Shown: positions 69 through 19,712 of the stretch, one piece after another
Numbering within the stretch: position 1 is the stretch's first letter
Layout of the letters: each line of letters begins with the position of its first letter
DNA from: Aeromicrobium stalagmiti
Lineage (GTDB): Bacteria; Actinomycetota; Actinomycetes; Propionibacteriales; Nocardioidaceae
Reading direction: 5' to 3'
Length of the DNA stretch: 24,000 nt
NCBI RefSeq assembly: GCF_013283745.1
Contig: NZ_JABSTZ010000001.1
Span: 428,406-452,405, forward strand
Position numbers and translations under genes: made by a program
The notes under the pieces: model-generated
Database searches by the model: none
What the model was told of the DNA's origin: nothing
What the model saw: only the letters and a program-made list of their open reading frames with translations

Positions 69-752
69 ATGCACACCGCCCGCAAGATCGCCGCCACGAG
101 CTCCATCGCCCTCGGACTCGCCATGGTGTCGTTCGCCGTGCCCGGGATCGCCCAGGCCGCCGACGGCGACGACCTCGCCGCCACTCCCGCAGCCGCCACC
201 GCGACCCCGACCGACAAGGCACCGAGCCTCGATCTCGACCTCTTGGTGCCGCAGGTCGAGCTCGACATCCCCGAGACGCTCCCGACCCCCACGCTGCCCA
301 CCACCCCGGGCGACCCGGTCGAGACCACCGAGCCCACGCCCGAGCCGACGCGCCCGACGGACAACCCCGGTGACGACGTCGACGTGCCCGGCACGCCCGG
401 AGGTGTCGAGACCGACGACGACAGCGGCAACAACGGCAACGGCAACGGCAACGGCAACGGGAACCCCGGCGACAGCACGGACGACGACAGCGGCTCCAGC
501 GACCCGGGATCGGGCGACTCCTCCTCGCAGGGCGAGGACGACAACAACGGCGTCGACCCCGTCCTCGGCAACGGCGTCGCGCCGCAGCAGGGCCTACAGG
601 ACGCCACGCCGCCCGCAGCCGACACGCAGCGCACGCTGCCTGCCGCCGGTGGACCGGCGCAGCTGCCCGTGCTCGTGCTCGGCCTGGGCCTGATCGTGGT
701 CGGCGGGGTGCTGGTCAAGCGCCCGTACGCTGCACGTCACCGCGTCGTCTGA
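69..752 (+). CDS. Secreted, highly acidic, low-complexity (D/P/T/G/N-rich) surface protein with a sortase-like LPAAG + TM + basic-tail C-terminus
   Basis: ATG at 69 follows AGGAGA (60-65). The N-terminus MHTARKIAATSSIALGLAMVSFAVPGIAQA/AD looks like a Sec signal peptide. The body has no recognisable folded domain and includes an NGNGNGNGNGN run. The C-terminus reads TLPAAGG-PAQLPVLVLGLGLIVVGGVLV-KRPYAARHRVV. The stop is 3 nt before the eccB start. Confidence 0.75.
   Translation: MHTARKIAATSSIALGLAMVSFAVPGIAQAADGDDLAATPAAATATPTDKAPSLDLDLLVPQVELDIPETLPTPTLPTTPGDPVETTEPTPEPTRPTDNPGDDVDVPGTPGGVETDDDSGNNGNGNGNGNGNPGDSTDDDSGSSDPGSGDSSSQGEDDNNGVDPVLGNGVAPQQGLQDATPPAADTQRTLPAAGGPAQLPVLVLGLGLIVVGGVLVKRPYAARHRVV
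426..464. repeat. In-frame hexanucleotide tandem repeat (AACGGC)n encoding (Asn-Gly)n
   Basis: Sequence reads ggc aac aac ggc aac ggc aac ggc aac ggc aac ggg aac. There are four perfect AACGGC units at 432-455 plus degenerate flanking units. Confidence 0.9.
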
Positions 753-755
753 CGC

Positions 756-2108
756 ATGGCGAGCAAGCGTGACCTGGTCGAGGCGCACGACTTCAACAGG
801 CGTCGGCTGGTCACTGCGTTCCTGAGCGGAGCGCCGGGCGGACGGGAGGTCGAGCCCGTCCGCTACGGCCGTACGATCATCGGCGGGCTGGTCCTCGCGG
901 CGATCCTCGTCGCCGGAGCCGCCGTGGCCGGCGTCCTCAAGCCGACCGTCAGCGACGACTGGCGCGAGAACGGGCTCGTCATCGGCAAGGAGAGCGGATC
1001 GCGCTACCTGATGTTCGAGAAGCAGCTCTACCCGGTCGCCAACATCACGTCGGCCCGCCTGGCGCTGCAGGACGAGCTCAAGATCAGCTACGTCCCCGAC
1101 GACGTCCTGGTCAAGGAGCCCAAGCGCAACGCGATCGGCATCGTCAACGCCCCCGACTACCTGCCGCCGGCCAACCGCCTCGTGCAGGACGGGTGGACCG
1201 CGTGCACCAACGGCGACGGTGGTCTCCGGACCGTCGTCAGCACCCGGTCCGGTGCCGAGCGCTCCACCGGCACGGCCCTGCTGGTGAAGTCCCGCGACGA
1301 CGGGAAGTACTGGATCGTCTCGGGCAGCCGGCGCTACCCCGTGCCCAAGGGCAACGTCGGGACCGCCATCGTGCGAGCCCTCGGCCTCGACACCACCACG
1401 GCGTTCCCCGGCACCAACCGCTGGCTCGACCTGCTCCCCATCGGCAGCACGGTCACGGCATTCACGGTGCCCGGCAGCGGCTCGTCCGTCGACAGCGGCG
1501 TCCCCGGCCTCGACGTCATCGGCACGCGCGTGCAGGCCGACGGGCGCGACTACGTCCTGGTCAAGGGCGGGCTCGTGCTGCTCCAGCCCTTTGCGGCGGC
1601 CATCTACTCGGTGAGTCCCGGCACGGTCGACGCCGACCCGGTCGAGCTCGACCCGACCGACTTCGGTCGCATCCAGACCCTCAACAGCGCCAAGCTGTTC
1701 CCGGCGGACTGGCCGAAGGCCCTGCCGAGCACCTACTCCGAGCAGACGCCGTGCCTCGTGCTCGGCCGCGCCGAGCAGGAGGACGACACCAGCCGGGCCT
1801 ACCTCGCGACGCCGACCGAGCCGTCGATCGTGCCGACGGGTGCCGAGGCCTCCGCCGAGGTCCAGCAGGGTCGCGGCGCGCTCGTCTACGGCAGCACCCG
1901 CACCTCGGGTGGCCCCGTCGACACCGAGTACCTCATCGACTCCCTCGCGACGCGCTATGCGATCGAGCCCAAGAACGCCGCCGCCGAGGCGCAGCGCCGG
2001 CTCGGCTACGGCGACGTCGAGCCGGTGCCCGTGCCCCGCACGTGGACCGAGCTGTTCCGCGACGGGCCGGCCCTCGACGCCACCAAGGCCGGAGCGCCGG
2101 TCGGATGA
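756..2108 (+). CDS. eccB: Type VII secretion system membrane component EccB
   Basis: 450 aa. The N-terminus SKRDLVEAHDFNRRRLVTAFLSG is followed by a single TM (TIIGGLVLAAILVAGAAVAGVL) and a roughly 380-aa extracytoplasmic region, the layout I recognise for the EccB family. The stop overlaps the mycP start (ATGA at 2105-2108). Confidence 0.8.
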   Translation: MASKRDLVEAHDFNRRRLVTAFLSGAPGGREVEPVRYGRTIIGGLVLAAILVAGAAVAGVLKPTVSDDWRENGLVIGKESGSRYLMFEKQLYPVANITSARLALQDELKISYVPDDVLVKEPKRNAIGIVNAPDYLPPANRLVQDGWTACTNGDGGLRTVVSTRSGAERSTGTALLVKSRDDGKYWIVSGSRRYPVPKGNVGTAIVRALGLDTTTAFPGTNRWLDLLPIGSTVTAFTVPGSGSSVDSGVPGLDVIGTRVQADGRDYVLVKGGLVLLQPFAAAIYSVSPGTVDADPVELDPTDFGRIQTLNSAKLFPADWPKALPSTYSEQTPCLVLGRAEQEDDTSRAYLATPTEPSIVPTGAEASAEVQQGRGALVYGSTRTSGGPVDTEYLIDSLATRYAIEPKNAAAEAQRRLGYGDVEPVPVPRTWTELFRDGPALDATKAGAPVG

Positions 2109-3292
2109 GGCGACAGCTGTCCGCAGCACTCGCGGCGACGATCGGCGCCATCGCGCTGCCGGTCGTCGTCGACGCCCCGGCTCGGGCGGCAGAGGGCCGC
2201 AACTGCACGACTGATGAGACGCAGTACGTGACCGAACCGGCCGGGCTGCTCAACCTGCAGCAGACCGGCTTCGAGCAGTCGTGGCGGTTCGCGACCGGCA
2301 AGGGTGTCGTCGTGGCGGTCGTCGACTCCGGCGTCAACCAGCGCAACGTCCACTTCTCCCGGGGCCTCGAGGACGGCACGTCGTTCGTCGGCGGTGCGGG
2401 CACCGACGACCTCCAGGGACATGGCACGGCCGTGGCCGGCATCATCGGCGCCCGCACCTTCGGCGACTCGGTGCTGGTGGGCGCTGCGCCCGACGCCACG
2501 ATCGTCCCCGTCCGCGTCAACACCGTGGCCGACCAGATCTCGACCGCCAACGTCGCCAAGGGCATCCGCTGGGCCGCCGAGCGCGACGAGGTCGACGTCA
2601 TCAACATCTCGATCAGCACCGGACCCAGCGACCCGCAGCTCAAGGCCCTGAGGGCGGCAACGGCCCTCGCGGTCAAGAACGACAAGGTCGTGGTGGCGTC
2701 TGCCGGCAACGGCCCGGGTCGCGACAACCCCTACACCCAGGTGCAGTACCCCGCTGGATTCCCCGGGGTGCTGGGGGTCGCGGCGACGACTCCCGGGGGC
2801 GGCGTCGACAACTACTCGATCCATGGCAAGCACGTCGACGTGTCCGCGCCTGGCGTGAACGTTTTGGCGCCGTTCCACGCGGTCGGCGACTGCCTGTTCG
2901 GCATCGACCAGCCCTACACGAGCTATGCGACCCCGTTCGTCAGCGCACTGGCCGCCCAGCTGCGCGAGCGGTTCCCGAAGGACTCGGCCGCCGACATCGC
3001 CAACCGCATCACGTCCACGGCCGACCGGCCGCGCATCGCCGAGCGCAACGACATCGAGGGCTGGGGCCGCATCCAGCCGGTCGCCGCGCTCACGAGCAGC
3101 GAGGCCACACCTCCGGGTGAGCGCCGCTCGAGCATCAAGCCACCGGCCGGCACCAGCATCACCGCGAGGGCCGCGGCCGACGACCCCCTGGCCGGCCCGC
3201 GGGACCGTCTGCTCTGGTGGGCCCTCGGCGCGACCGCACTGCTGTCGGTCGCCCTGGTCGCCCGTCCGCTCAGCGCTCGGATGCGACGCTAG
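2105..3292 (+). CDS. mycP: Mycosin (MycP), T7SS-associated membrane-anchored subtilisin-like serine protease
   Basis: Internal ATG at 2105 of track ORF 1193..3292. Signal peptide MRRQLSAALAATIGAIALPVVVDAPARA. Subtilase motifs are VVAVVDSGV (Asp), LQGHGTAVAGII (His), ASAGNG (Asn) and TSYATPFVSALAA (Ser). C-terminal TM LLWWALGATALLSVALVA followed by RPLSARMRR. Confidence 0.9.
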   Translation: MRRQLSAALAATIGAIALPVVVDAPARAAEGRNCTTDETQYVTEPAGLLNLQQTGFEQSWRFATGKGVVVAVVDSGVNQRNVHFSRGLEDGTSFVGGAGTDDLQGHGTAVAGIIGARTFGDSVLVGAAPDATIVPVRVNTVADQISTANVAKGIRWAAERDEVDVINISISTGPSDPQLKALRAATALAVKNDKVVVASAGNGPGRDNPYTQVQYPAGFPGVLGVAATTPGGGVDNYSIHGKHVDVSAPGVNVLAPFHAVGDCLFGIDQPYTSYATPFVSALAAQLRERFPKDSAADIANRITSTADRPRIAERNDIEGWGRIQPVAALTSSEATPPGERRSSIKPPAGTSITARAAADDPLAGPRDRLLWWALGATALLSVALVARPLSARMRR

Positions 3293-3904: not shown

Positions 3905-4864
3905 ATGAAGGCGATCCAGATCACATCCCTCGACGGCCCCTCCGCAGTGGAGCTCCTCGACGTGCCCGAGCCCGTGGCCGCACCCGGCCAGGTCCTGATC
4001 CGCGTCCGCGCCGCCGGCGTCGCGTTCCCGGAGGTGCTGCAGTCGCGCGGGCTCTACCAGATGAAGCCCGACCTCCCCTTCACCCCGGGAGCCGAGATCG
4101 CGGGCGAGGTCATCGCCGCTCCCGAGGACTCCGGGTTCGCCCCGGGCGACCGCGTCGCCGCGCTGTGCCTCCTGGGCGGCTTCGCCGAGCAGGCCGTCGC
4201 CCCGGTCACCGAGACGTTCAAGCTGCCCGACTCCGTCTCGTACGGGCAGGGCGCCTCGATCATCTTCAACTACGGCACCGCCTACTTCGCGCTGATCGAG
4301 CGCGGCCACCTGCAGGCCGGTGAGTCGGTGCTGGTGCAGGGCGCGGCCGGCGGCATCGGCACCGCTGCGATCCAGGTCGCCAAGGCGTTCGGCGCGGGTC
4401 GCGTCGTCGCGGTGACCTCGACCGCCGAGAAGGGCGCCGTGGCGCTGGAGGCCGGCGCCGACGAGTTCGTGCTGGCCGACGGCTTCAAGGACGCGACCGT
4501 CGCCGGCGGCAAGGTCGACATCGTCGTCGACCCGGTCGGCGGCGACCGCTTCACCGACTCGCTGCGCTGTCTCAAGGACGACGGGCGCCTGCTCGTCATC
4601 GGCTTCACCGCCGGCGAGATCCCGACCGTCAAGGTCAACCGCCTGCTGCTCAACAACGTGTCCGTCGTCGGTGTCGGCTGGGGCGCGTACGTGCTGCAGC
4701 GTCCCGGGCACATCGCGACCGAGTGGGCCGCGATGGAGCCGCACCTGGCCAGTGGCGCCCTGCAGCCGGTCGTCGGACCGACGTTCCCCCTCGCCGAGGC
4801 GGCACAGGCCCTGCTCACGCTCGACGAGCGTCGCGCCACCGGCAAGGTGCTGCTCACCCCCTGA
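3905..4864 (+). CDS. NADPH:quinone oxidoreductase-like medium-chain dehydrogenase/reductase (zeta-crystallin/Qor type)
   Basis: 319 aa. N-terminal GroES-like fold (PGQVLIRVRAAGVAFPE, PFTPGAEIAGEV), the nucleotide-binding loop VQGAAGGIGTAAIQVAK, and the C-terminal ATGKVLLTP ending typical of Qor-like MDRs. Confidence 0.9.
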   Translation: MKAIQITSLDGPSAVELLDVPEPVAAPGQVLIRVRAAGVAFPEVLQSRGLYQMKPDLPFTPGAEIAGEVIAAPEDSGFAPGDRVAALCLLGGFAEQAVAPVTETFKLPDSVSYGQGASIIFNYGTAYFALIERGHLQAGESVLVQGAAGGIGTAAIQVAKAFGAGRVVAVTSTAEKGAVALEAGADEFVLADGFKDATVAGGKVDIVVDPVGGDRFTDSLRCLKDDGRLLVIGFTAGEIPTVKVNRLLLNNVSVVGVGWGAYVLQRPGHIATEWAAMEPHLASGALQPVVGPTFPLAEAAQALLTLDERRATGKVLLTP

Positions 4865-5393
4865 CACCCCCACCGGCCGGCGGGGAGGTGAGCTGCTCGC
4901 GGGTGACGAAGGCGAGCTGGGCGGTCTTGTCCGCCAGCTCGACCACGGCGCCCTTCGTCAGACCCGTGCGCTCGGCGCGGGCGATCGACCGCGCATTGGC
5001 GACGTCAGGCTCCGCGACGATGCGGCGCACCGCCGGGTCGGCCAGGACGACGCCGAGCAGGTAGGACGTCAGGCGACCCGTGAACCCGGGCTCCGGGACG
5101 TCGGCCGGCCCGACGAAGAGGTGGCAGCCCAGGTCACCCTCCTGCACGTCGTACGACTCCCCCATCGGGTCGTGCGCCGGGTCGTACGTCTGGAAGATCG
5201 CGACCGCCCGTCCGTCGCGGTGCACGAGATAGGCGTGATGTGTCGTCAGGCCGTCGAGGTAGGCGTAGACCTCACCGACCTCCTCACGGGTGTAGGTCGT
5301 CATGCCCCAGAACGTCGCCCGGGGCGCGGTGACCCACGCGTGCAGGAGGTCGAGGTCGCCGACCGGGTCGACGGGGCGGTGGGTGAAGGTCAT
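4854..5393 (-). CDS. Stand-alone siderophore N-acyltransferase (IucB/DesC-like GNAT, Acetyltransf_8 type), second copy in the operon
   Basis: 179 aa. Motifs LLHAWVTAPRATFWGM, TYDP, GDLGCHLFV and VAEPDVANARS align end to end with the N-terminal domain of the CDS at 7369..9744. The ATG overlaps the stop of the acylase gene (ATGA at 5390-5393). Confidence 0.85.
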   Translation of the reverse strand: MTFTHRPVDPVGDLDLLHAWVTAPRATFWGMTTYTREEVGEVYAYLDGLTTHHAYLVHRDGRAVAIFQTYDPAHDPMGESYDVQEGDLGCHLFVGPADVPEPGFTGRLTSYLLGVVLADPAVRRIVAEPDVANARSIARAERTGLTKGAVVELADKTAQLAFVTREQLTSPPAGGGVRG

Positions 5394-7372
5394 GCGGACT
5401 CCGGATCAGTGGGGACGGGGACGAGTCGACCGCCCGACCAGTGGTCGAGCTGGTCGTGGTGGTGGGGATCGGCCGGGTCACCGGACGCCCCGAGCGGGAC
5501 GATCCACCGGCTCGCGGCGCGATCGGCGAGGTCCCACACGTAGCGGGCGACAGGCCCACGCAGCACCTGGTCGGTGACGCCCGGGACGCTCGAGGTCGAC
5601 AGCACGCACTCGGTGTCACCCGACAGCGCGACCGCCGGGACGCCCGCCGGCGCCCAGACGTGGGTCGCTCCCCAGGTCTCGGGCGGGCCCGCCGCGGCGA
5701 CCTCCTCGAGCGCACGGGTCGCGAGCGCGGCCAGGTCGATGCCCCACGGGGTCGGGCTTCGGTCGACCAGCCGGTCGAGCTCCTGACCGAGCCGGCCGAC
5801 CACGTCGACCCACGGGTCGAAGAGAGCGGGCCAGGGCGACGGCTCGCGCAGGGCGGCGAAGGCGGGCTCGTCGGCGAGGCGGCGCACGAGGGCGCCCCGC
5901 ACCGCGGCGAACGCGGCGGCACCCGCGCTGCCGGCATCCATCCGCCCGTCCCACGAGCCGATGATCGAGCGGAGGTCGGCCGCCCCGGGCGTCAGGGTCT
6001 CGACCGAGTCGAGCAGAGACCGCAGCCTGCCGGCGGGCGCGAGGGCCGTGTCGAGGTGCAGCGACCGCGCGTCCTCGACGGTCAGGTCACGGCGGTCGCC
6101 GAGCAGGTCGCGCAGCCGGTCGGCGCGGTGCGGCGGGGCGAACTCGTGACCCACCGCCGCGCTCTCGGGGCCGCGGCGCTCGTTGGCGGTGACGAGCACG
6201 TCGTCCGCCCCGACGTCCGACGACGGCAACGGGTCGAGCCAGCCCATCCACGCGTGCTGCTCGTCCCACGCCGGGACCGGCACCCGCCGAGCACGCTCGT
6301 CGCGCACCGGCACCCGGCCGGCCACCCGGTAGCGGACCCGGCCGGATCGGTCGGCGATGACGACGTTGTTGACCGGCTCGACCCAGCGGTCGAGGGCGCG
6401 GTCGACGTCCTCGACGGTGCGCGACCGCAGCAGCGGCAGGATCGCGTCGAGCCCGAGGTCGCGACCGACCCGCGACGCCGTCCGCAGGCTGAGCCCCTGA
6501 CCGGCATCGGGTCCCCCGACGACGAGCGGACCCTGTCGGGTGACGACGACCTCGACCGGCACGGGATCGGCCCCGCGGACGTCGATCTGCTCGGTGTGGA
6601 CGTCGGCGGCGTACCAGCCCTCCGCACCCCGCGCCTCGACCCCGGCGGCGGTGCGCCGCAGCTGCTCGACGAAGAGATCCTGGTAGTCCGCCATCGCGTT
6701 GGTGATGGCCCACGCGACCTCGCCGGCGTGGGCGAAGTGCTGCACCCCGGGCACTCCCGGGAACGTGAGACCGACGACGTCGACGCCGGGGCAGACCAGC
6801 CGCACCTGCTGATAGACGCCCGGTGACTCGAGCACACGGTGCGGGTCGCCGGCGATGATCGGGCTCCCCGAGACCGTCCGACCGCCGCCCGCGACCCAGG
6901 CGTTGCTGCCCGACAGGGCGGGACCCTCGCCACCGATGAGGTCGAGCGCGTCCTCGCCGAGCGCCGCGGCGACCCGCGCCCGCCACAGCTTGGTCGGGAA
7001 CGTCCCGAACAGGACGTGCTGCACGCAGAAGATGCCCAGCGGCGTCCACGGCGTCCATGCACCCGGCTGCCGGCGGTCGAGACCTTCCTCGACCCCCGCG
7101 ACGTACGCCGCGCAGAACCGCTGGGTCTCGGTGTCCATGCGCTCGAAGCACTCGCGGGCGGTCCGGTCGATCAGGGTCTGCCGCGCGAAGGTGTCCCAGC
7201 CGACCCCGGCGACGCCCAGCACCTCCGCCGTCCGCCCCACGGCATGGAGGCGGTCCATCTCGATCTGGTCGCCACGGTCGATCGCCGTGACGCGCCCCTG
7301 CTCGCGCGCGAGCTCGTCGATCGACGCCGCCCGGACCGTCGGCACGCCCCACGGGTCGCGCTCGACGCTCAC
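5390..7372 (-). CDS. Penicillin-acylase-family Ntn hydrolase (PvdQ/AHL-acylase-like amidase) with no evident signal peptide
   Basis: 660 aa. The protein starts directly with the mature-type motif RDPWGVPTVRA. The candidate autoprocessing nucleophile is in GS-SNAWVAGG (Ser at residue 156, codon 6905-6907), followed by IIAGDPH. The GTG start overlaps the stop of the upstream synthetase (GTGA at 7369-7372). Confidence 0.85.
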   Translation of the reverse strand: MSVERDPWGVPTVRAASIDELAREQGRVTAIDRGDQIEMDRLHAVGRTAEVLGVAGVGWDTFARQTLIDRTARECFERMDTETQRFCAAYVAGVEEGLDRRQPGAWTPWTPLGIFCVQHVLFGTFPTKLWRARVAAALGEDALDLIGGEGPALSGSNAWVAGGGRTVSGSPIIAGDPHRVLESPGVYQQVRLVCPGVDVVGLTFPGVPGVQHFAHAGEVAWAITNAMADYQDLFVEQLRRTAAGVEARGAEGWYAADVHTEQIDVRGADPVPVEVVVTRQGPLVVGGPDAGQGLSLRTASRVGRDLGLDAILPLLRSRTVEDVDRALDRWVEPVNNVVIADRSGRVRYRVAGRVPVRDERARRVPVPAWDEQHAWMGWLDPLPSSDVGADDVLVTANERRGPESAAVGHEFAPPHRADRLRDLLGDRRDLTVEDARSLHLDTALAPAGRLRSLLDSVETLTPGAADLRSIIGSWDGRMDAGSAGAAAFAAVRGALVRRLADEPAFAALREPSPWPALFDPWVDVVGRLGQELDRLVDRSPTPWGIDLAALATRALEEVAAAGPPETWGATHVWAPAGVPAVALSGDTECVLSTSSVPGVTDQVLRGPVARYVWDLADRAASRWIVPLGASGDPADPHHHDQLDHWSGGRLVPVPTDPESA

Positions 7373-9744
7373 CGGCGGTGCCGGGCGATCGGGTTGGCGA
7401 GCGTGCCGGCGAACATCAGCGACGTCGCCTGGTCCGACAGGTCGACCATCTGACGGGTGTCGCGCAGCTGCAGCCGGTTGAGGCAGGAGTGGGCGAACTT
7501 CGGCGCGAACAGGTCGATCCGGGCGAAGGCCTCGGCCAGCTCGGGGTGGTCCGCCTGGTGCTCGGCGATCGTCGCCGCGACCAGAGACCAGAACTCGTCC
7601 GACGCCAGCACGCCGTCCTCCGCCAGGATCGCCGCGAGGAACCGCAGGAAACCGTCGAAGACGTCGGTCAGCACCGACAACGCCTTGACGTCGTCGGGGA
7701 CGTCGGCCCGCACCCGCTCGATCTCCTCGGGCAGCGGCAGGTCGCCCAGCACGGCGATCTCCTCACCGATGTCCTTCATCAGCATCCGCGTGGGCACGTG
7801 CCCGTCGAGCACCATGATCAGGTTCTCCCCGTGCGGCATGAACGCGAGCTCGTAGCGGTGCAGGCAGTGCACGACGGGTCGGACGTAGGCCCGCAGGTAG
7901 CGACGCACCCACTCGCGCGGGTCGAGGCCGGAGGCGCGGACGAGCCCGACGGCGAACGACGCACCGTCGCGGTCGCGGTGCAGCAGCGACGCCATCGTGG
8001 CGAGCCGATCGCCGGGAGCGAGCTGGGCGACGGGGCTCTCGCGCCAGAGCGCCGCGAGCATCTTGGTGTACGGCTGGGGCGCCGCCCCGCTCGCCGGGGT
8101 CGACGTGCCGATCCGGTGGTAGGCGTCGCCGGTGTAGCCGATCGCCGCCCGCTCGCGCAGCACGCCGAAGCCGGTCGACCGCAGCTCGTCGTCGGACGCC
8201 ACGAGGTCGGCGACCCAGTCGTTGATGGCCGGCGTCGCCCGCATGTAGCGCGGCGACAGCCCCCGCATGAAGCCCATGTTCTGGATCGACAGCGCGGTCT
8301 TGACGTAGTGCCGCTCCGGGCGGTCGACGTTGAAGTACGTCCGGATCGACTGCTGCGCCTGGTAGTGGTCGTCACCGCTGCCGAGCAGCACGAGGTCGTG
8401 ACGGGCCACGTCGGGCGCGAACGTGATCGCGATCTTGTGCTCCCACTGCCAGGGATGCACCGGGATGAGCAGGTAGTCCGACGGGTCGAGCCCGAGGCCG
8501 CGCAGCGTCCCCTCGAAGCGTCCACGGGTCGCGGCGTCGATCTCGCCGGCGTAGAGCGCGCGCTCGTCGAGGCCCTCGCCGGTCGACAGGTGCGCGAGCG
8601 TCCGCCGGGCGGCGACCCACACCACCGCGAACGTCTGCCCGGTCTCGGGCGCATACGCCGCGTGGTCGGCGACGGAGAACCCGATCCGCCCGTTGTTGGC
8701 GACGAAGGCCGGGTGGCCCTCGGTCATCGCCGCCTCCACCGCCTGGAAGTCCGCCTGCAGCAGGTCACGGACCGAGGTCGTGGAGTGGACGTCCTTCCAC
8801 GCCGAGCCCGCAAGGGTGCTGCTGATCTCCTCGAGATAGGTCGGCAGCAGGGCCCCGGGGATGCCGAGCACCTCGGCGTGCTCGATGACGAACGCGAGCG
8901 CATCGACCTCCGCCTCCTCGCCGTCGACGACGCGCGAGATCGACCACGGACCGACGACCCAGTGGTCGAGCTCGTAGCGGTGGGCGTGGAACCGGTAGCT
9001 GACGCGGCCGTCGGGCGAGACCAGCTCGTGGTCGGGCCCGACCGGGCGCGGGTCGAGCAGCCGCTCGTGCGCGAACTCGCCGATCGCCTTGGCCACGAGG
9101 AACCGGTGGGCTCGCTGCATCGGCTCGGGCGCGAGGTGACGGGTCAGGTCGCGCAAGCGGTCCCCCTCGTCGTCGACGGCTCGCAGCAGCTCGCTGCCCG
9201 CGAAGTCGTCGCGGGTGCAGACGCTCAGCGCGGCGACCTTGTCGGTCAGCTGCACCCGGCCGAGCACCCGGAACCCCGCCGCCGCGTTGAGCGCAGCGAT
9301 GCGGTCGTTGCGGACGTCCGGCTCCACGACGACGCGCATCCGCCGCGGGTCGTCGAGGCACAGCTCCATGACGGTGCGGAACACCGCGGACGTGAAGCCG
9401 GTCCGCGGCGAGTCCGTGGGCGCGACGAGCACGTGCATGCCGATGTCGCCCGGCTGCCAGTCGTACGTCCCGGCGAGCTCGCTGTGCTCGGGGTCGTAGG
9501 TCTCGGCCAGGAAGGCCGGCTCCCCGTCGACCCGGCCGAGCCACGCCTCGTGGTGCGGGTCGGCACCGATCTCGGCGTACGCCGCGCAGACGTCGTCCAC
9601 CGAGGCGCCCTGCATCCCCCAGAACACCGATCGGGGGTGGGTGATCCAGGCGTGGAGCAGGTCGCCGTCACGGTCGAGGTCGACCGGCTCGATCGTGATG
9701 CACCCGACCGCGGTGTCGCGCGACAGCAGGACCCCCGCGCTCAT
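7369..9744 (-). CDS. Bifunctional N-hydroxydiamine acyltransferase :: IucA/IucC-family NIS siderophore synthetase (DesC-DesD-type fusion)
   Basis: 791 aa from the internal ATG at 9744 (MSAGVLLSRD...) of track ORF 7369..10164. The N-terminal roughly 190 aa form an Acetyltransf_8-type domain (LLHAWITHPRSVFWGM, VVEPDVRNDR). The rest is IucA/IucC (VHPWQWEH, QSIRTYFNV, MPHGENLIMVL) with an FhuF-like C-terminus. The ATG overlaps the monooxygenase stop (ATGA at 9741-9744). Confidence 0.9.
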   Translation of the reverse strand: MSAGVLLSRDTAVGCITIEPVDLDRDGDLLHAWITHPRSVFWGMQGASVDDVCAAYAEIGADPHHEAWLGRVDGEPAFLAETYDPEHSELAGTYDWQPGDIGMHVLVAPTDSPRTGFTSAVFRTVMELCLDDPRRMRVVVEPDVRNDRIAALNAAAGFRVLGRVQLTDKVAALSVCTRDDFAGSELLRAVDDEGDRLRDLTRHLAPEPMQRAHRFLVAKAIGEFAHERLLDPRPVGPDHELVSPDGRVSYRFHAHRYELDHWVVGPWSISRVVDGEEAEVDALAFVIEHAEVLGIPGALLPTYLEEISSTLAGSAWKDVHSTTSVRDLLQADFQAVEAAMTEGHPAFVANNGRIGFSVADHAAYAPETGQTFAVVWVAARRTLAHLSTGEGLDERALYAGEIDAATRGRFEGTLRGLGLDPSDYLLIPVHPWQWEHKIAITFAPDVARHDLVLLGSGDDHYQAQQSIRTYFNVDRPERHYVKTALSIQNMGFMRGLSPRYMRATPAINDWVADLVASDDELRSTGFGVLRERAAIGYTGDAYHRIGTSTPASGAAPQPYTKMLAALWRESPVAQLAPGDRLATMASLLHRDRDGASFAVGLVRASGLDPREWVRRYLRAYVRPVVHCLHRYELAFMPHGENLIMVLDGHVPTRMLMKDIGEEIAVLGDLPLPEEIERVRADVPDDVKALSVLTDVFDGFLRFLAAILAEDGVLASDEFWSLVAATIAEHQADHPELAEAFARIDLFAPKFAHSCLNRLQLRDTRQMVDLSDQATSLMFAGTLANPIARHRR

Positions 9745-11066
9745 GCGCCGACCTCCATCCGCAGGCGCGCCCCGGGATGCCGGGCGAGGTCCGTCGGCAC
9801 ACCGAACTCCTGGAAGGCGATGTGCTCCTCGACGGGGTAGACCTCCCGACCACACATCTGCCGGATGATGATCGAGCTGCGGTAGGCGCCCATCCCGAGG
9901 TCGGGGGCGATCAGCCCGTGGGTGTGCTCCTCGGCGTTCTGCACGAAGATCTCCTGGTCGGTGTGGTCGATCGTGTAGCCGGCGGCCACGTCGTAACGGC
10001 CCCGGTCGTCCCAGCGGATGCGGTCGGCGATGCCCTCCACGAAGGCGGGCACCTGCGGGCGGTAGCCCGTCGCGAGGACGAGCCCCTCGGTCTGCAGGTC
10101 GAGGGGCTCGTCCAGCTCGGTGTGGCGCAGCTCGAGCGCGTAGCGCCCGGCGGCGGCGTCCCACGACGCACCGCCGAGCTCGGTGTGGGTCAGCAGACGG
10201 GTGGGGACGTCACCGTGCACGCGCTTGCGGTAGAGCGTGTCGAAGATGGCGTCGACGAGATCGCCGCTGATGCCCTTGTAGAGGCCCTTCTGGTCTCGCA
10301 GCAGCCGGTCACGGGTGCCGGCGGGGAGCGCCTGGAAGTAGCGGGTGTACTCCGGTGACGTCATCTCCAGCGTGAGCTTGGTGTACTCCATCGGGAAGAA
10401 CCGCGGCGACCGCGTCGCCCACACCAGCTCGTAGCCGAACGTGTCGATGTCCTCGAGCAGGTCGAGATAGATCTCGGCGGCACTCTGGCCGCTGCCGACG
10501 ACCGTGATCGACGCCGTGGCCTGCAGGGCCGCCTTGTGGGTGAGGTAGTCGGCGGAGTGGATCATCGGCCCGTCGACGCCCTCCACCACCGACGGCACGT
10601 GCGGCCGGGTGCCGGTGCCGAGCACCAGGCGCCTCGCCCGGTAGGTCTCGGTGCCGCCCGAGCGCAGACGCGCGGTGAGCACGTACGCCTCGCCGTCGTG
10701 CTCGACCCGGTCGACGTGGCGTCCGAAGCGGACGCCCTCGACCTGCGACGCGGCCCAGCGGCAGTAGGCGTCGTACTCGGCCCGGAGCGGGTAGAAGCTC
10801 TCGCGGATGTAGAACGGGTAGAGCCGTCCGGTCTGCTTGAGGTAGTTGAGGAACGAGTAGCGCGACGTCGGGTCGGCCATCGTCACCAGGTCGGCCATGA
10901 ACGGGACCTGGAGCGTGGCGTCCTGCAGCATCATCCCGGGGTGCCAGCTGAAGTCGTCGCGTGACTCCAGGACGATGCCGTCGAGGCCGTCGACGGGCTC
11001 GGCCAGGCAGGCGAGGCCCAGGTTGAACGGGCCGAGGCCGATCGCGGCGAAGTCGTGGGTGCGCAT
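9741..11066 (-). CDS. desB: Lysine/ornithine/alkyl-diamine N-hydroxylase (IucD/DesB/AlcA flavin monooxygenase family)
   Basis: 441 aa from the internal ATG at 11066 (MRTHDFAAIGLGPFNLGLA...). Motifs are the FAD motif GLGPFNLGLA, the NADPH motif VVGSGQSAAE, and LVLATGY. The start overlaps the decarboxylase stop (TGATG). The symbol is by analogy only. Confidence 0.9.
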   Translation of the reverse strand: MRTHDFAAIGLGPFNLGLACLAEPVDGLDGIVLESRDDFSWHPGMMLQDATLQVPFMADLVTMADPTSRYSFLNYLKQTGRLYPFYIRESFYPLRAEYDAYCRWAASQVEGVRFGRHVDRVEHDGEAYVLTARLRSGGTETYRARRLVLGTGTRPHVPSVVEGVDGPMIHSADYLTHKAALQATASITVVGSGQSAAEIYLDLLEDIDTFGYELVWATRSPRFFPMEYTKLTLEMTSPEYTRYFQALPAGTRDRLLRDQKGLYKGISGDLVDAIFDTLYRKRVHGDVPTRLLTHTELGGASWDAAAGRYALELRHTELDEPLDLQTEGLVLATGYRPQVPAFVEGIADRIRWDDRGRYDVAAGYTIDHTDQEIFVQNAEEHTHGLIAPDLGMGAYRSSIIIRQMCGREVYPVEEHIAFQEFGVPTDLARHPGARLRMEVGA

Positions 11067-12535
11067 CAGTGAACCTCCTCCGGCGCGTAGAGGTCGTCGA
11101 GGAGCTCGTGCCCGATCGAGCGGACGAGGTCGAGCACCGCCCGCAGGTCGTCCGTCGTCGTGGCGGGGTTGAGCATCGTCAGCTTGAGCCACGACCGGCC
11201 CTCGACCTTGGTGCCGGCGATCACGGCGGAGCCACTGCCGGCGATCGTCCGCCGGATGCCCGGGTTGACCTCGTCGGCCACCGACTCCGGCACCCCGTCC
11301 GGGCGGAAGCGGAAGACCAGGGTGCTCAGCGTCGGCGCGGTGACGACCTCGAGGTCGGCGTCGTCCCGCAGCAGCTCGTAGCCCGCCTGGGCGAGGTCGA
11401 CCACGGCGTCGACGTACTCGCCGATCGCGTCGGCTCCCATGGTGCGGAGCGTCAGCCAGAGCTTGAGGGCGTCGAAGCGCCGGGTCGTCTGCAGGCTCTT
11501 GTCGACCTGGTTGGGCTGGGCCGAGGAGCGCGGGTTGAGGTAGTCCGCGTGGTACGTGACGTGCCGCAGGTCGGCCCCGTCGCGGAAGATCACCGCGCTG
11601 GAGCTGACCGGCTGGAAGAACGTCTTGTGGAAGTCGACCGTGACGGAGTCGGCGCGCTCGATGCCGGCCAGCAGGTGGCGGCGGCGCGGCGAGACCAGCA
11701 GTCCTCCGCCGTACGCGGCGTCGACGTGCATCCAGACGCCGCTCTCGGCGCACACGTCGGCGATGCGCTCGAGCGGGTCGATGCTGCCGAAGTCGGTGGT
11801 TCCGGCGGTCGCGACGACGGCCATCGGGATGAGGCCGGCGGCGCGGGTGTCGCGCAGTGCCTGCTCGAGGGCCCACGGGTCCATCCGGCGGCGCCCGTCG
11901 GTCGGGATCGTCACCACGGCGTCCATGCCGAGCCCGAGGATGTTCGCGGACTTCTGGACGCTGAAGTGGCTGTCGCGCGAGGCGAAGATCCGGAACCTGG
12001 CAGCGGTGTGGGCCAGCGGCTCGGCCGGGTCGGCGTCACCTGCGAGATAGGCCTGGCCACGGGCGACCAGGAGCGCCTGCAGGTTGGACTGCGTGCCGCC
12101 GCTGGTGAAGACGCCGTCCCCGGCGGCGTCGAAGCCGATCCGCGCGGCGGTCCAACCGACGAGCCGACGCTCGATCTGCGTGCCGCCGGCGCTCTGGTCC
12201 CACGTGTCGAGCGAGGAGTTGACCGACGACACCAGCACCTCGGCGACCAGCGCCGGGATGACGACGGGGCAGTTGAGGTGCGCGAGGTAGCGCGGCTCGT
12301 GGAACCACACGGCGTCATCGAGGTAGACGTCCTTGACCTCGGCCAGCGCCTGGCCCATGTCGGCGAGAGGACGGTCGAGATCGATGTCGTCGACCCGCGA
12401 GACCACCTCGGCCACGCCGGCGCCGGTCCACGGCCCGGTGACGGTGGCGACGTGGTCGGCCACGGCCGTGACGCCTCGGGTCATCTCGTCGCGATAGCGT
12501 TCGATGTTGTCGGCGTTGAACAGGTGCTGTCGCAC
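11066..12535 (-). CDS. desA: Group II PLP-dependent decarboxylase (lysine / 2,4-diaminobutyrate decarboxylase type, DesA-like)
   Basis: 489 aa. GTG start at 12535 sits 8 nt after GAAGGA. The PLP-lysine block is SVTVDFHKTFFQP. It is the first gene of the operon. Substrate (Lys vs DABA vs Orn) cannot be called by eye, and the symbol is by analogy only. Confidence 0.9.
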   Translation of the reverse strand: MRQHLFNADNIERYRDEMTRGVTAVADHVATVTGPWTGAGVAEVVSRVDDIDLDRPLADMGQALAEVKDVYLDDAVWFHEPRYLAHLNCPVVIPALVAEVLVSSVNSSLDTWDQSAGGTQIERRLVGWTAARIGFDAAGDGVFTSGGTQSNLQALLVARGQAYLAGDADPAEPLAHTAARFRIFASRDSHFSVQKSANILGLGMDAVVTIPTDGRRRMDPWALEQALRDTRAAGLIPMAVVATAGTTDFGSIDPLERIADVCAESGVWMHVDAAYGGGLLVSPRRRHLLAGIERADSVTVDFHKTFFQPVSSSAVIFRDGADLRHVTYHADYLNPRSSAQPNQVDKSLQTTRRFDALKLWLTLRTMGADAIGEYVDAVVDLAQAGYELLRDDADLEVVTAPTLSTLVFRFRPDGVPESVADEVNPGIRRTIAGSGSAVIAGTKVEGRSWLKLTMLNPATTTDDLRAVLDLVRSIGHELLDDLYAPEEVH

Positions 12536-12640: not shown

Positions 12641-12657
12641 CGACGGACGTGACCCGC

Positions 12658-13662
12658 CTACTTCTCGCTGTCGAGCATCGCCATCTGGTCCTCGGCGTAG
12701 CGGGTGCCGGCGACCCGGTCGGCCGGCATCGCCTGCTCGATCGCGGCGAGCTGGTCGGCGGTGAGGGTCACGTCCACCGCACCGAGGCTCTCCGCCAGGC
12801 GCTCGCGCGTGCGGGCACCCACCAGCGGCACGATGTCGTCGCCGCGCGACGCGACCCACGCGATGGCCGCCTGGGCCACCGTGACGCCGGCCTCGGCCGC
12901 GATGCCGCGCAGCGCCTCGACGAGCGCGAGGTTGGCGTCGAGGTTGTCGCCCTGGAATCGGGGCGTGTGCGCCCGGAAGTCACCGGCGCCGGTCTTGGCG
13001 GGGTCGTAGTGCCCGCTGATCAGCCCGCGGGACAGGACGCCGTATGCCGTGATGCCGATCCCGAGCTCGCGGCACGTGTCGAGGATGTCGCCCTCGACGC
13101 CCCGCGAGATCAGCGAGTACTCGATCTGCAGGTCGCTGATGGGGTGCACCGCGTGCGCCCGGCGGATCGTCTCGGCGCCGACCTCGGAAAGGCCGATGTG
13201 TCGGACGTGCCCGGCCTCGACCAGCTCGGCGATCGCCCCGACGGTCTCCTCGATCGGGACGCGAGGGTCGAGCCGGGCGGGGCGGTAGACGTCGACGTGG
13301 TCGGTGCCGAGGCGTTGCAGCGAGTAGGCCAGCCACGTCTTGGTGGCGGCCGGGCTGGCGTCGAACCCGAACCAGGAGCCGTCGGGGCCGCGCAGCGCGC
13401 CGTACTTGACGCTGATCTGGACCGCGTCGCGGTCGACGCCCCGCAGCGCCTCGCTCAGGAGCAGCTCGTTGTGCCCCATGGCGTAGAAGTCGCCGGTGTC
13501 GAGCAGCGTGATGCCGGCGTCGAGCGCGGCGTGGATCGTGGCGATGCTCTCGTCACGGTCCGCCGGGCCGTACAGGGCTGACATGCCCATCAGGCCGAGG
13601 CCGATCGGCGGGGTGGCACCCAGGGTGCCGAGGGTCTTGGTCGTCCGTGTCTGTGTGGTCAT
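12658..13662 (-). CDS. Aldo/keto reductase (copy 1; catalytic His position is Ala)
   Basis: AKR fold motifs LLDTGDFY, ISVKYG, PIEETVGAIAELVEAGHVRHIGLSE, and the C-terminal GARTRERLAESL. I prefer the ATG at 13662 (GGAGAC immediately upstream) over the track start at 13710, but the start is uncertain. Confidence 0.85.
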   Translation of the reverse strand: MTTQTRTTKTLGTLGATPPIGLGLMGMSALYGPADRDESIATIHAALDAGITLLDTGDFYAMGHNELLLSEALRGVDRDAVQISVKYGALRGPDGSWFGFDASPAATKTWLAYSLQRLGTDHVDVYRPARLDPRVPIEETVGAIAELVEAGHVRHIGLSEVGAETIRRAHAVHPISDLQIEYSLISRGVEGDILDTCRELGIGITAYGVLSRGLISGHYDPAKTGAGDFRAHTPRFQGDNLDANLALVEALRGIAAEAGVTVAQAAIAWVASRGDDIVPLVGARTRERLAESLGAVDVTLTADQLAAIEQAMPADRVAGTRYAEDQMAMLDSEK

Positions 13663-13763
13663 GTCTCCACCGTGCGTCCGCTGCGACACCGGCGAAAGAG
13701 GAGCGTTCAACCACGGACTGCCGGTCCCTGTTTACGCGCTGCACACCGCGTCATGATGGACGC

Positions 13764-14603
13764 ATGGAACGCGAAGCACTGGCCGACTTCCTCGTCCGCC
13801 GCCGGGACGCCCTGCAGCCGGCCGACGTCGGCCTGACCCCGGGCACCCGCCGCCGCGCTCCGGGGCTCCGCCGCGAGGAGGTCGCGCAGCTCACCGGCAT
13901 GTCGGTCGACTACTACGCCCGCCTCGAGCAGGGCCGCAGCCCGCAGCCCTCGACCCAGATGCTGCGCGCCCTCGCCCGGACGCTGCGTCTCAGCCGCGAC
14001 GAGAGCGACCACCTGCACCGGCTCGCCGGGCACCCGGCGCCCGACCGCGTCGGGGTGTCGACGCACGTCCGCCCCGTCATCCTGCACGTGCTGGACCAGC
14101 TCGATGACTGCGTCGCGTTCGTCTGCTCCGACACCGACGTCGTCCTGGCCCAGAACCGTCTCTCGCTGGTCCTCCAGGGGGACCACCGCGGACGGACCGG
14201 GGTCGAGGCGAGCTCGACGTACGAGTGGTTCACCCAGCCCGGCGCCCAGGACCGGATCGTCGCCGAGGACCGGCCCGAGCACAGCCGTGTGCGGGTCGCC
14301 GACCTGCGGGCGACGTGGTCGCGCCGCCACCAGGACACCGACATCACCGAGCTGGTCGACCGGCTGCTCGCCGAGAGCCCGGAGTTCGCCGAGATCTGGG
14401 CGCGCCACGAGGTCGGCGTCAAGCACCTGCAGACCAAGCGCTTCGACCACCCGCAGCTCGGCGTCCTCGAGGTCGACTGCGAGACCATGGCGACCGGCGA
14501 GGACGGTCAGCGCCTCGTCATCCTCGGCGCCGCGCCCGGCACCGAGGCCCACGGCAAGCTCCGCCTGCTCGGCGTCCTGGGCGAGCAGAGCCTCGAGGTC
14601 TGA
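13764..14603 (+). CDS. MmyB-like XRE-family HTH transcriptional regulator
   Basis: 279 aa from the internal ATG at 13764 (MEREALADFLVRRR...). The HTH is GLRREEVAQLTGMSVDYYARLEQGR. The C-terminal roughly 170 aa resemble the MmyB-type ligand-binding domain. It is divergent from an AKR gene, a common pairing. Confidence 0.8.
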   Translation: MEREALADFLVRRRDALQPADVGLTPGTRRRAPGLRREEVAQLTGMSVDYYARLEQGRSPQPSTQMLRALARTLRLSRDESDHLHRLAGHPAPDRVGVSTHVRPVILHVLDQLDDCVAFVCSDTDVVLAQNRLSLVLQGDHRGRTGVEASSTYEWFTQPGAQDRIVAEDRPEHSRVRVADLRATWSRRHQDTDITELVDRLLAESPEFAEIWARHEVGVKHLQTKRFDHPQLGVLEVDCETMATGEDGQRLVILGAAPGTEAHGKLRLLGVLGEQSLEV

Positions 14604-15277: not shown

Positions 15278-16273
15278 TCAGATCGTCAGGCCCTTGAGGG
15301 CGGCCTCGGGGTAGCGGTCGCCCGCCGCGACGCCGACCGGTGCTGCCTCGGCCAGCGCGGCCAGGTCGGCCTCGGTGAGCTCGATGTCGGCGGCGGCGAC
15401 GTTCTCCTCGAGATACGTCCGACGCTTCGTGCCGGGGATCGCGACGACGCCGTCCTGGTGCAGCACCCACGCGAGCGCGAGCTGTCCGGGCGTGACGCCC
15501 TTGGCCTCGGCGAGCGCACGCACGCGGTCGACGACGCTCAGGTTGGCCGTCAGGTTCGCCTCGGTGAAGCGCGGGCTGCTCCGGCGGAAGTCGTCGGCGT
15601 CGAGGTCGTCGGCCGACGCGATCGCGCCGGTCAGCACACCGCGACCGAGCGGGGAGTACGCGACGAACGCGATGCCGAGCTCACGGGTCGTGTCGAGCAC
15701 GCCGTTGACCTCGGGCGACCGCTCGAAGAGCGAGTACTCCGTCTGCACCGCCGAGAGCGGGTGCGTCGCGTGGGCGCGCCGGATCGTCTCCGGCGAGGCC
15801 TCGGAGATCCCGAGGTAGCGGACCTTGCCCTCCTGGACGAGCTCGCCCATCGCGCCGAACGTCTCCTCGATCGGCGTGCTCGGGTCGACCCGGTGGATGT
15901 AGTAGAGGTCGATCGTGTCGCGGCCGAGGTTGCGCAGCGAGCGCTCGAGTGCCGTGCGCAGGTATGCCGGCGAGCCGTTCGGGCCGCGGCGCTCACCGTC
16001 GTCGGTGATCTCGACGCCGGTCTTGGTCGCCAGGGCGTACTCGCTGCTGCGGCTGCCGATCGTCCGACCGATGAGCCGCTCGTTGAGGAACGGTCCGTAC
16101 AGCTCGGCGGTGTCGATCAGGCTGACCCCCAGGTCGAGCGCCCGGTGCAGGGTCGCCGCGGACTCCTCGTCGTCCCGCGCGCCGTAGAACGCGGACATGC
16201 CCATCGCGCCGAGCCCCTCGACGCCGGCCTCGAGGCCCTGGCTTCCCCATGCTGTGGTCTTCATCTGCCCCAT
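15278..16273 (-). CDS. Aldo/keto reductase (copy 2; canonical Asp-Tyr-Lys-His tetrad positions present)
   Basis: 331 aa from the ATG at 16273 (MGQMKTTAWGSQGLE...) inside track ORF 15278..16744. Motifs are IDTAELYG, ATKTG, DLYYIHRVDP and VRYLGISE. The start overlaps the merR-family stop (TGATG). Confidence 0.9.
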   Translation of the reverse strand: MGQMKTTAWGSQGLEAGVEGLGAMGMSAFYGARDDEESAATLHRALDLGVSLIDTAELYGPFLNERLIGRTIGSRSSEYALATKTGVEITDDGERRGPNGSPAYLRTALERSLRNLGRDTIDLYYIHRVDPSTPIEETFGAMGELVQEGKVRYLGISEASPETIRRAHATHPLSAVQTEYSLFERSPEVNGVLDTTRELGIAFVAYSPLGRGVLTGAIASADDLDADDFRRSSPRFTEANLTANLSVVDRVRALAEAKGVTPGQLALAWVLHQDGVVAIPGTKRRTYLEENVAAADIELTEADLAALAEAAPVGVAAGDRYPEAALKGLTI

Positions 16274-16665
16274 CACTTCCCGTCCATCACTGCGGTCTTG
16301 TAGTAGTCGATCTTGCGGTTGATCGCCGTGAGGTGCGTCTGCACCTCGTCGAGCTGCTCCAGCACGTGGACGCGGTGCGCCTCGAGGATCGCGAGGCGGT
16401 CGGCCTCGGTCCCGTCGCGGCGGTAGAGCTCGACGAACTTCTTGATGTCGCGGATCGGCATGCCGGTCCGGCGCAGCATCACCAACGTCCCGAGCCACTT
16501 CACGTTCTGCTCGGTGTAGCGCCGCTGCCCCGACGACGAGCGCCCGGGGCGATGGAGGGTCAGGCCCTCCTTCTCGTAGTAGCGCAGGGTGTCGACGCTC
16601 AGGCCGCTCATCTGGGCGGCCGCGCTGATGGTGAGCCCCTCCGGGGGCACCTCGGTGACGGTCAT
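16273..16665 (-). CDS. MerR-family transcriptional regulator
   Basis: 130 aa from the ATG at 16665 (MTVTEVPPEGLTISAAAQMSGLSVDTLRYYEKEGL...). It has the typical MerR N-terminal wHTH plus a coiled-coil dimerisation helix. It is co-oriented with, and coupled to, AKR copy 2. Confidence 0.9.
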   Translation of the reverse strand: MTVTEVPPEGLTISAAAQMSGLSVDTLRYYEKEGLTLHRPGRSSSGQRRYTEQNVKWLGTLVMLRRTGMPIRDIKKFVELYRRDGTEADRLAILEAHRVHVLEQLDEVQTHLTAINRKIDYYKTAVMDGK

Positions 16666-17597: not shown

Positions 17598-17633
17598 TTG
17601 ACGTGGGCCCGACGGGTCGGGGGAGCACGTCAA
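17598..17633 (+). terminator. Nested stem-loop between the ABM gene and the SGNH hydrolase gene (terminator or 5'-UTR regulatory hairpin)
   Basis: Outer perfect 8-bp arms TTGACGTG / CACGTCAA enclose an inner stem CCCGA / TCGGG. The structure starts 16 nt after the ABM stop and ends 1 nt before the AAGGAG Shine-Dalgarno (17635-17640) of the next gene. There is no U-tract. Confidence 0.5.
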
Positions 17634-17648
17634 CCAAGGAGACACCGC

Positions 17649-19615: not shown

Positions 19616-19644
19616 GACTCACATCCAATCAGGTCTTGCCGTAC

Positions 19645-19699
19645 ATCGAACACTGTTCTATCGTATAGAACGTCGTTCGATTGTCGAACGCCGTTCGAT
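19645..19699. promoter_or_regulatory. Operator array: six alternating half-sites (consensus ATCGAAC) forming three 7-3-7 palindromes between tetR-family and MFS genes
   Basis: The three sites are ATCGAAC-ACT-GTTCTAT (19645-19661), ATAGAAC-GTC-GTTCGAT (19665-19681) and GTCGAAC-GCC-GTTCGAT (19683-19699). The junction GTTCTAT-CGT-ATAGAAC (19655-19671) is itself a perfect palindrome. The array ends at the AGGAGG SD (19700-19705) of the MFS gene. Confidence 0.6.
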
Positions 19700-19712
19700 A
19701 GGAGGTGTCATC

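Follow-up and report, generated by a model that had tools for sequence, protein, structure and literature searches.

The 24,000-nucleotide stretch of the Aeromicrobium stalagmiti genome considered here (contig NZ_JABSTZ010000001.1, positions 428,406 to 452,405 of the forward strand; "the window" in what follows, with all positions counted from its first letter) carries, with a probability of roughly 0.8, an iron-repressed desferrioxamine (DFO) operon, the two distal genes of which are orthologous to the published desG/desH module. Taken by themselves, the two distal genes are very probably desG, encoding an amidase, and desH, encoding an acyltransferase. This pair has already been described and named; it steers desferrioxamine synthesis towards linear, capped products, and its arrangement is widespread rather than new.

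Five genes (desA, desB, desC::desD, desG and desH) follow each other without gaps on the minus strand. The last three junctions are 4-nt overlaps (ATGA between desB and desCD, GTGA between the desCD stop and the desG start, ATGA between the desG stop and the desH start); at the desA/desB junction, TGATG, stop and start are adjacent, with zero spacer. The original prediction, which was made from the sequence alone, had claimed the GTGA and ATGA overlaps of the two distal genes, as well as a siderophore operon that continues into these extra genes beyond an acyltransferase already fused to its synthetase; the open reading frames (ORFs), their junctions and the domain content of the 791-aa fusion protein confirm all of this, well outside what chance would give. 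Over its full length that fusion aligns with the DfoC of Erwinia (5o7o; E 8e-226); DesD structures come next, at ~1e-201. Decarboxylase, N-hydroxylase, acyltransferase and type C synthetase, the ingredients of a DfoC/DesD-type pathway independent of nonribosomal peptide synthetase (an NIS pathway, for NRPS-independent siderophore), are thus encoded in one operon. It is led by an iron box, and desG is its fourth gene. When up to 3 mismatches to the actinobacterial consensus TTAGGTTAGGCTAACCTAA for such boxes are allowed, this box is the sole site that matches in the 24 kb (0 of 100 shuffles matched).

The precedent for the two extra genes comes from two sources. A phylogenomic study of 2017 noted a penicillin-amidase gene inside the des clusters of Micrococcus, gave it the name desG, and found that in Arthrobacter and Streptomyces it stands at another genomic site, with an iron box ahead of it (PMC5812494). 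In Streptomyces coelicolor, desG (SCO4049) and desH (SCO4050, which encodes a paralogue of DesC) are controlled by DmdR1; introducing stop codons into these genes (work published in 2025) lowered desferrioxamine B (DFO-B) ~1000-fold in the case of desG and 16-fold in the case of desH and raised DFO-E, and both mutants could be complemented (PMC12161575). Of 46 DFO producers with sequenced genomes, 36 have homologues of desG and desH, sometimes as a fusion; the producers that lack them make uncapped products only (PMC12161575). The published model has DesG stripping succinyl from N-hydroxy-N-succinylcadaverine (HSC), after which DesH adds acetyl (PMC12161575).

The 660-aa DesG of the window belongs, as had been predicted, to the penicillin-amidase family: it matches the Pfam profile Penicil_amidase (PF01804) at E 1.5e-145 (487 bits, against a cut-off of 21.3), with residues 2-658 spanning positions 3-671 of the 675-position profile. 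The two motifs that had been singled out, RDPWGVP and SNAW, stand at residues 5-11 and, as GSNAW, at 155-159. A model of the protein generated with AlphaFold (AF2; mean confidence, pLDDT, 83.9; predicted template-modeling score, pTM, 0.88) and submitted to Foldseek has the fold of the family, with more than 50 S45 structures matching at a probability of 1.00. The best protein matches, at 77-82% identity, come from Aeromicrobium (Nocardioidaceae), with another assembly contig at 99%. In an alignment of 16 sequences (DesG and 15 homologues from Aeromicrobium, Nocardioides, Streptomyces, Arthrobacter-group genera and Micromonospora), G155, S156, N157, H178 and N397 are invariant (register checked against 4hsr). 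These include the residues that mark an S45 enzyme: a nucleophilic Ser after Gly, the His at β23 and the oxyanion Asn at β242. Autocleavage is predicted to occur between G155 and S156.

Does DesG merely seem to lack an export leader because its start codon has been misplaced? Two observations rule this out: upstream of the desG GTG (at 7372) the frame stays open for 131 codons, with zero ATG, GTG or TTG among them, and the 15 aligned homologues all begin at the same RDxWG(V/I)P motif, with only 4-28 residues (4-7 in all but two) ahead of it. Because of these two features, the absence of an export signal, which the original prediction had also proposed, is a property of the whole clade and not a local problem of annotation. 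The first 40 residues of DesG are also hydrophilic. DesG is accordingly a cytoplasmic N-terminal nucleophile (Ntn) hydrolase of the penicillin-amidase family with an intact catalytic set.

Distribution of desG and the lineage of desH

The original prediction regarded the arrangement as unusual. It is not: quite apart from the naming of desG in 2017, a scan of one genome per species yielded at least 591 loci encoding a DesG relative, and in 76 of the best 80, which were analyzed further, a desH orthologue lies immediately downstream of desG on the same strand. What is less common is proximity to the rest of the pathway. Genes desABCD lie within 10 kb of desG in 12 of the 80 loci: colinear, as in the window, in five (three Aeromicrobium, one unclassified actinobacterial metagenome-assembled genome and one Micromonospora) and divergent from desG in seven Streptomyces/Micromonospora-group genomes. 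Three of these 12 clusters (L001, L018 and L058) have the DesC::DesD fusion, which is absent in the other nine; such fusions had been reported already in 2017. DesG-DesH fusion proteins are also found among the matches (P0028, P0029, P0036 and P0105).

Of 79 loci, 64 have an iron box (at up to 4 mismatches) no more than 250 nt upstream of desG, compared with 15 hits in the other 1.64 Mb. The colinear loci L001 and L003 resemble the window in that their box precedes desA. Elsewhere desG and desH are controlled by an iron box of their own; in the window they form the tail of the des operon.

The connection to the genetically characterized Streptomyces locus can be made through gene order. DesG is 52% identical, over 99% of its length, to the Streptomyces protein P0117, whose neighborhood (HhH-GPD, siderophore-interacting protein (SIP) reductase, amidase, Acetyltransf_8, cupin, short-chain dehydrogenase) has the same gene order as that reported for SCO4047-SCO4052 (PMC12161575). 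The site of the W61* knockout of SCO4049 corresponds to the near-invariant W59 of the window's DesG, given the +2 offset of the Streptomyces N-termini. It is on this synteny and on the W61/W59 correspondence, and not on a direct alignment with SCO4049, that the probable orthology of DesG to the Streptomyces amidase encoded in desJGH is based.

The 179-aa product of the last gene had been predicted to be an Acetyltransf_8 paralogue of the fused acyltransferase domain, and so it is (E 3e-44), with 40% identity to that domain over 167 residues in a gap-free alignment; its closest solved structure is the N-terminal domain of DfoC. Proteins encoded in the slot after desG score higher with the window's DesH as query than with its DesC in 76 of 77 cases (mean 152 vs 108 bits), while the acyltransferases inside des clusters score higher with DesC in 12 of 12. 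Because the two queries divide the post-desG from the in-cluster acyltransferases in this way, DesH and DesC are assigned to separate, old lineages; a recent duplication of the fused DesC domain as the origin of the 179-aa protein is ruled out on the same ground. The Acetyltransf_8 protein encoded directly after desG in the window is of the DesH and not the DesC lineage. By analogy with the S. coelicolor genetics, it would prefer acetyl-CoA or another non-succinyl donor.

(Some side observations on the surveyed loci: Three of them, L023 (Kribbella), L046 (an uncultured actinobacterium) and L059 (Arthrobacter), have no DesH-type gene within 10 kb, and recall the case of Gordonia in the literature, in which another acyltransferase of the GCN5-related (GNAT) type is thought to substitute. 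Two Micromonospora loci have a second DesH-type gene (L063:3197-3679 and L070:4453-4935), 57% identical to the DesH of the window, ~5-6 kb upstream of desGH and on the opposite strand, so that some genomes have extra copies; weak iron-box-like sites are found near these second genes, and no desABCD is within reach. In L040 (Streptomyces flavusporus) a serine recombinase is encoded a few kb upstream of desG (6040-7713) and a Cupin_5 gene comes after desH (12653-13126), as in other Streptomyces; SIP and HhH-GPD genes were not found among the hand-picked ORFs of this locus.)

The acyl site of DesG and the reaction proposed for it

The solved structure closest to DesG in sequence, by a wide margin, is 35sz (E 8e-113), an uncharacterized "penicillin acylase family protein" deposited as separate alpha and beta chains, the latter beginning at the residue that aligns with S156. 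No paper on 35sz was found in the literature search, and the entry is absent from the Foldseek library, which ends in April 2026; it may be a DesG structure. Next in order come a class III acylase from Pseudomonas N176 that acts on glutaryl-7-aminocephalosporanic acid (glutaryl-7-ACA) (4hsr; its beta chain aligns at E 1.6e-69 and 33% identity) and D-succinylase (7eby; E 1.5e-37), followed by the penicillin G acylases (PGA) at E 1e-13 or weaker. Ranked by fold, the matches to the DesG model are D-succinylase (template-modeling score, TM, 0.80), class III acylase, class I acylases, MacQ, PGA and PvdQ. The original prediction had looked to PvdQ and the acylases that trim marinobactin for an analogy. 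It is a weak one: DesG scores 17 bits with the PvdQ equivalog model NF051460, which has a cut-off of 950, and the succinyl and glutaryl acylases are closer.

The N176 acylase uses Ser1β as its nucleophile and forms its oxyanion hole from Asn242β and the backbone of residue 70β; the substrate is contacted by R24β, Y32β, H57β, H70β, H178β, N242β and Y467β (PMC6712217). The corresponding residues S156, H178 (β23), R179 (β24), Y187, H212 and N397 of DesG are invariant in the alignment, and they include all four equivalents of the substrate-holding R24β, Y32β, H57β and N242β. Among ten S45 enzymes that have been compared structurally, only 4HSR and D-succinylase have Arg at β24; PGA, PvdQ, MacQ and class I acylase have Phe, Trp, Val or Leu (PMC11241749, Table 1). 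In DesG the position is occupied by R179 of an invariant DPHR motif. The enzymes with Arg at β24 cleave dicarboxylic-acyl amides, and the invariant Arg of DesG therefore lends sequence-level support to succinyl specificity: the acyl site resembles those of enzymes that cleave succinyl and glutaryl amides, and the Arg speaks against a DesG specific for phenylacetyl or fatty acyl groups. One can think of this comparison as a modest addition to what is already in print; it backs the putative assignment of DesG as a de-succinylase over the earlier aryl-transfer idea. The interest that remains is in what DesG does biochemically; here the β24 Arg yields a prediction that can be tested.

Orthologue genetics and the comparison of active sites together tip the balance, slightly, towards de-succinylation at the level of the monomer. 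The sequence of events would be as follows: 1) DesC would succinylate N-hydroxycadaverine, generating HSC. 2) DesG, having cleaved itself between G155 and S156, would hydrolyze the succinyl-hydroxamate bond in a part of the HSC pool, returning it to N-hydroxycadaverine. 3) DesH would re-acylate the freed N-hydroxycadaverine from acetyl-CoA or another acyl-CoA, generating N-hydroxy-N-acetylcadaverine (HAC). 4) HAC would cap the growing chain because it has no free carboxylate. 5) The DesD domain would then build linear, capped siderophores of the DFO-B type in addition to macrocyclic DFO-E. The suggestion in the original prediction that an acylating and a deacylating enzyme jointly tailor the siderophore survives in that coupled deacylation and acylation are what the published DesG/DesH model calls for; its claim to novelty does not survive, and nothing was found that points to a transient pro-siderophore or to an amphiphilic acyl-ferrioxamine-like intermediate.

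Several considerations weigh against this interpretation of the locus. A paper of July 2026 still terms DesG and DesH putative, and no in vitro activity of either protein was found in the literature searched. The 2017 study proposed a different reaction, the addition of a phenylacetyl group by DesG (PMC5812494). The substrate of DesG could be a succinyl-terminated oligomer instead of the monomer. The pocket of DesG is not identical to that of the glutaryl acylase: β70 and β178 are both Asn in DesG and His in the acylase. Four of the 80 surveyed loci are without an adjacent desH (one of the four is cut by a contig end).

The most serious of the competing explanations, and still a rather unlikely one, places the same two reactions after chain assembly: DesG would strip the terminal succinyl from an assembled linear dimer or trimer (DFO-G1, for example) and DesH would acetylate the exposed hydroxylamine, turning a DFO-E precursor into DFO-B rather than rebalancing the monomers. 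A carboxylate-recognizing pocket (R179, β24) would take any succinyl-ended intermediate, S45 acylases accept large leaving groups (7-ACA, amino acids), the loss of DFO-B with gain of DFO-E is accounted for equally well, and a 2026 paper on DesD leaves the point of action of DesG open. Against this, the authors of the genetic study favor the monomer, their argument being that DesG-DesH fusions put N-hydroxycadaverine at high local concentration to use (PMC12161575). Apart from this argument, late exchange agrees with all the data equally well. Were late exchange nevertheless to prove correct, desGH would be a post-assembly, cap-swapping editor that decides between macrocycle and linear DFO-B, and one that could be re-used to install non-natural caps.

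Could DesG instead work in the synthetic direction? Penicillin G acylases are capable of kinetically controlled acyl transfer, and an amidase of this family might attach phenylacetyl or other groups to N-hydroxycadaverine, leading to aryl-desferrioxamines. Strains of Micrococcus and Streptomyces that carry desG did make aryl-DFOs (PMC5812494), but S. coelicolor has desG and makes none (PMC5812494, PMC12161575). DesG is also much nearer to the succinyl and glutaryl acylases (E 1e-69, 1e-37) than to PGA (1e-13 or weaker), β24 is Arg in DesG and Phe in PGA, and an acyl-CoA-dependent DesH that can supply caps is nearly always encoded next to it. These considerations make synthetic transfer by DesG improbable.

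A shade less probable still is a catabolic role, in which DesG would cleave imported ferrioxamine or acyl-ferrioxamine in the cytoplasm, freeing iron or recycling building blocks, with DesH salvaging the fragments. Iron release or recycling had been offered as an alternative in the original prediction, and it is compatible with the sequence: DesG is cytoplasmic, it is iron-regulated, and in Streptomyces it adjoins a paralogue of siderophore-interacting reductases. The S. coelicolor knockouts fit it poorly, since they shifted the ratio of biosynthetic products, with secreted DFO-E increased, and did not abolish utilization (PMC12161575); moreover, in the window translational coupling ties the pair to biosynthetic genes, and uptake genes are absent. 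That the pair is an unrelated passenger (a quorum-quenching acylase for N-acyl-homoserine lactones (AHL), or an acylase for beta-lactams, plus a resistance-type GNAT, lying beside siderophore genes by chance) is effectively excluded, because the NCBIfam similarities to PvdQ and AAC(6') acetyltransferases that might suggest it fall far under their cut-offs (17 vs 950 and 28 vs 280), DesG has no leader peptide, 4-nt overlaps tie the genes to their neighbors, and pairing and iron boxes are conserved across genera.

De-succinylation of the HSC monomer followed by re-acylation, as published, is the most likely mechanism. For annotation, the two genes should be labeled desG and desH, and with them the cluster is predicted to make capped linear (DFO-B-like) plus macrocyclic desferrioxamines. 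DFO-B is an approved iron-chelation drug, and an enzyme pair that sets the ratio of DFO-B to DFO-E has practical value, a point already made in the literature.

Layout of the operon and its surroundings

The features of the predicted operon, with the gene names adopted here, are collected in Table 1. The G+C content of the window is ~72%. At its distal end the operon abuts a convergent gene for a zinc-type dehydrogenase (3905-4864), with an 11-nt overlap. Counterparts of desJ, desE and desF are not found in the 24-kb window, nor are siderophore uptake genes.

Table 1. Genes of the predicted des operon and the iron box ahead of it (positions in the window)
Feature	Position	Strand	Details
Iron box, DmdR1/IdeR-type palindrome TTAGGACAGGCTTACCTAA	12563-12581		Proximal edge 27 nt upstream of desA start (GTG at 12535)
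desA, PLP (pyridoxal phosphate)-dependent diamine-forming decarboxylase	11066-12535	-	489 aa, GTG start; Pyridoxal_deC 2.9e-69 (Pfam); syntenic with its counterpart in 12 related loci
desB, diamine N-hydroxylase	9741-11066	-	441 aa, true start ATG at 11066; Lys_Orn_oxgnase 1.9e-119 (Pfam)
desC::desD fusion, DfoC-type acyltransferase + type C NIS synthetase	7369-9744	-	791 aa; Acetyltransf_8 (residues 22-166) + IucA_IucC + FhuF
desG, leaderless Ntn (S45) amidase	5390-7372	-	660 aa, GTG start; Penicil_amidase
desH, stand-alone DesC-paralogous N-acyltransferase	4854-5393	-	179 aa, ATG start; Acetyltransf_8 3.2e-44

The des promoter region is flanked by genes for an aldo/keto reductase (12658-13710, minus strand) and a divergent MmyB-like regulator (13647-14603, plus strand); the longest ORFs of these two overlap by ~60 nt, and one of the starts is probably further downstream. 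A second aldo/keto reductase is encoded at 15278-16300. Further on, a TetR-family regulator (18902-19615, minus strand) and a transporter of the major facilitator superfamily (MFS; 19443-21188, plus strand) are likewise divergent, again with overlapping longest ORFs. The MFS gene was considered as a siderophore exporter, and nothing links it to the des operon.

The remaining observations concern genes at a greater distance. A 426-aa ORF at 17598-18878 (plus strand) has a strong coding signal (G+C content at third codon positions, GC3, 0.94) and an N-terminus that resembles a signal peptide. Its GDSY(I)SG motif is of the kind that is typical for SGNH/GDSL hydrolases; the ORF has no Pfam match at E 1e-3. 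Near the start of the window a Pro/Thr/Asp-rich 227-aa protein (69-752, plus strand) is encoded directly upstream of a homologue of the type VII secretion component EccB (756-2108, plus strand; E 1.5e-62). With its signal peptide, C-terminal LPAAG-like motif, hydrophobic stretch and basic tail it looks like a sortase-anchored protein, and it has no Pfam match. Between eccB and a PAP2 gene lies ~1.1 kb (2108-3270) in which no frame has a convincing coding signal; a 279-aa ORF that was tested there has no Pfam match. At the other end the window cuts off a CobN/Mg-chelatase-type protein, the C-terminal 673 residues of which are encoded at 21972-23993 (minus strand; E 1e-269).

Comparison with known systems

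The 791-aa fusion protein has a known architecture: Erwinia amylovora DfoC (5o7o) joins acyltransferase to synthetase in the same way. The four Pseudomonadota among the sequenced DFO producers have no homologues of desG or desH (PMC12161575), so that DfoC hosts of that kind do without the pair.

Three S45 enzymes provide points of reference for DesG, at different distances. PvdQ shares the Ntn-hydrolase fold and a role in siderophore maturation; however, it is exported, its substrate is an NRPS product, its β24 residue is Phe and its pocket is deep and hydrophobic, whereas DesG lacks an export signal and has Arg at β24. Sequence similarity between the two is marginal (E ~6e-3 over the core). 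The D-succinylase of Cupriavidus sp. P4-10-C (7eby/7ea4) is the top fold match (TM 0.80, E 9e-34), has the DPHR motif with its β24 Arg in common with DesG, and removes succinyl from an amine, the same chemistry that DesG is proposed to carry out; on the other hand, the two proteins are only 23% identical, D-succinylase is ~160 residues longer, and it acts on N-succinyl-D-amino acids, not hydroxamates. The N176 glutaryl-7-ACA acylase (4hsr/4hst) shares Ser1β, His23β, Arg24β, Tyr32β, His57β, Phe58β and Asn242β with DesG and likewise cleaves a dicarboxylic-acyl amide. It differs in that DesG has a shorter alpha chain and no leader, and in that the substrate and context of the N176 enzyme are unrelated to siderophores.

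The closest known counterpart of the pair as a whole is SCO4049/SCO4050 of S. coelicolor (PMC12161575): the same two families in the same order, a leaderless N-terminus, and control by an iron box. (A note on lengths: the DesG of the window has 660 aa, the Streptomyces homologues that were retrieved ~685 aa, and SCO4049 ~782 aa as annotated.) The location of the pair inside the des cluster has its precedent in the desG of Micrococcus (PMC5812494). In S. coelicolor the pair forms a separate DmdR1-controlled locus together with the reductase gene desJ; in the window, in contrast, it is translationally coupled to the desC::desD fusion of the DfoC type and is served by the des promoter.

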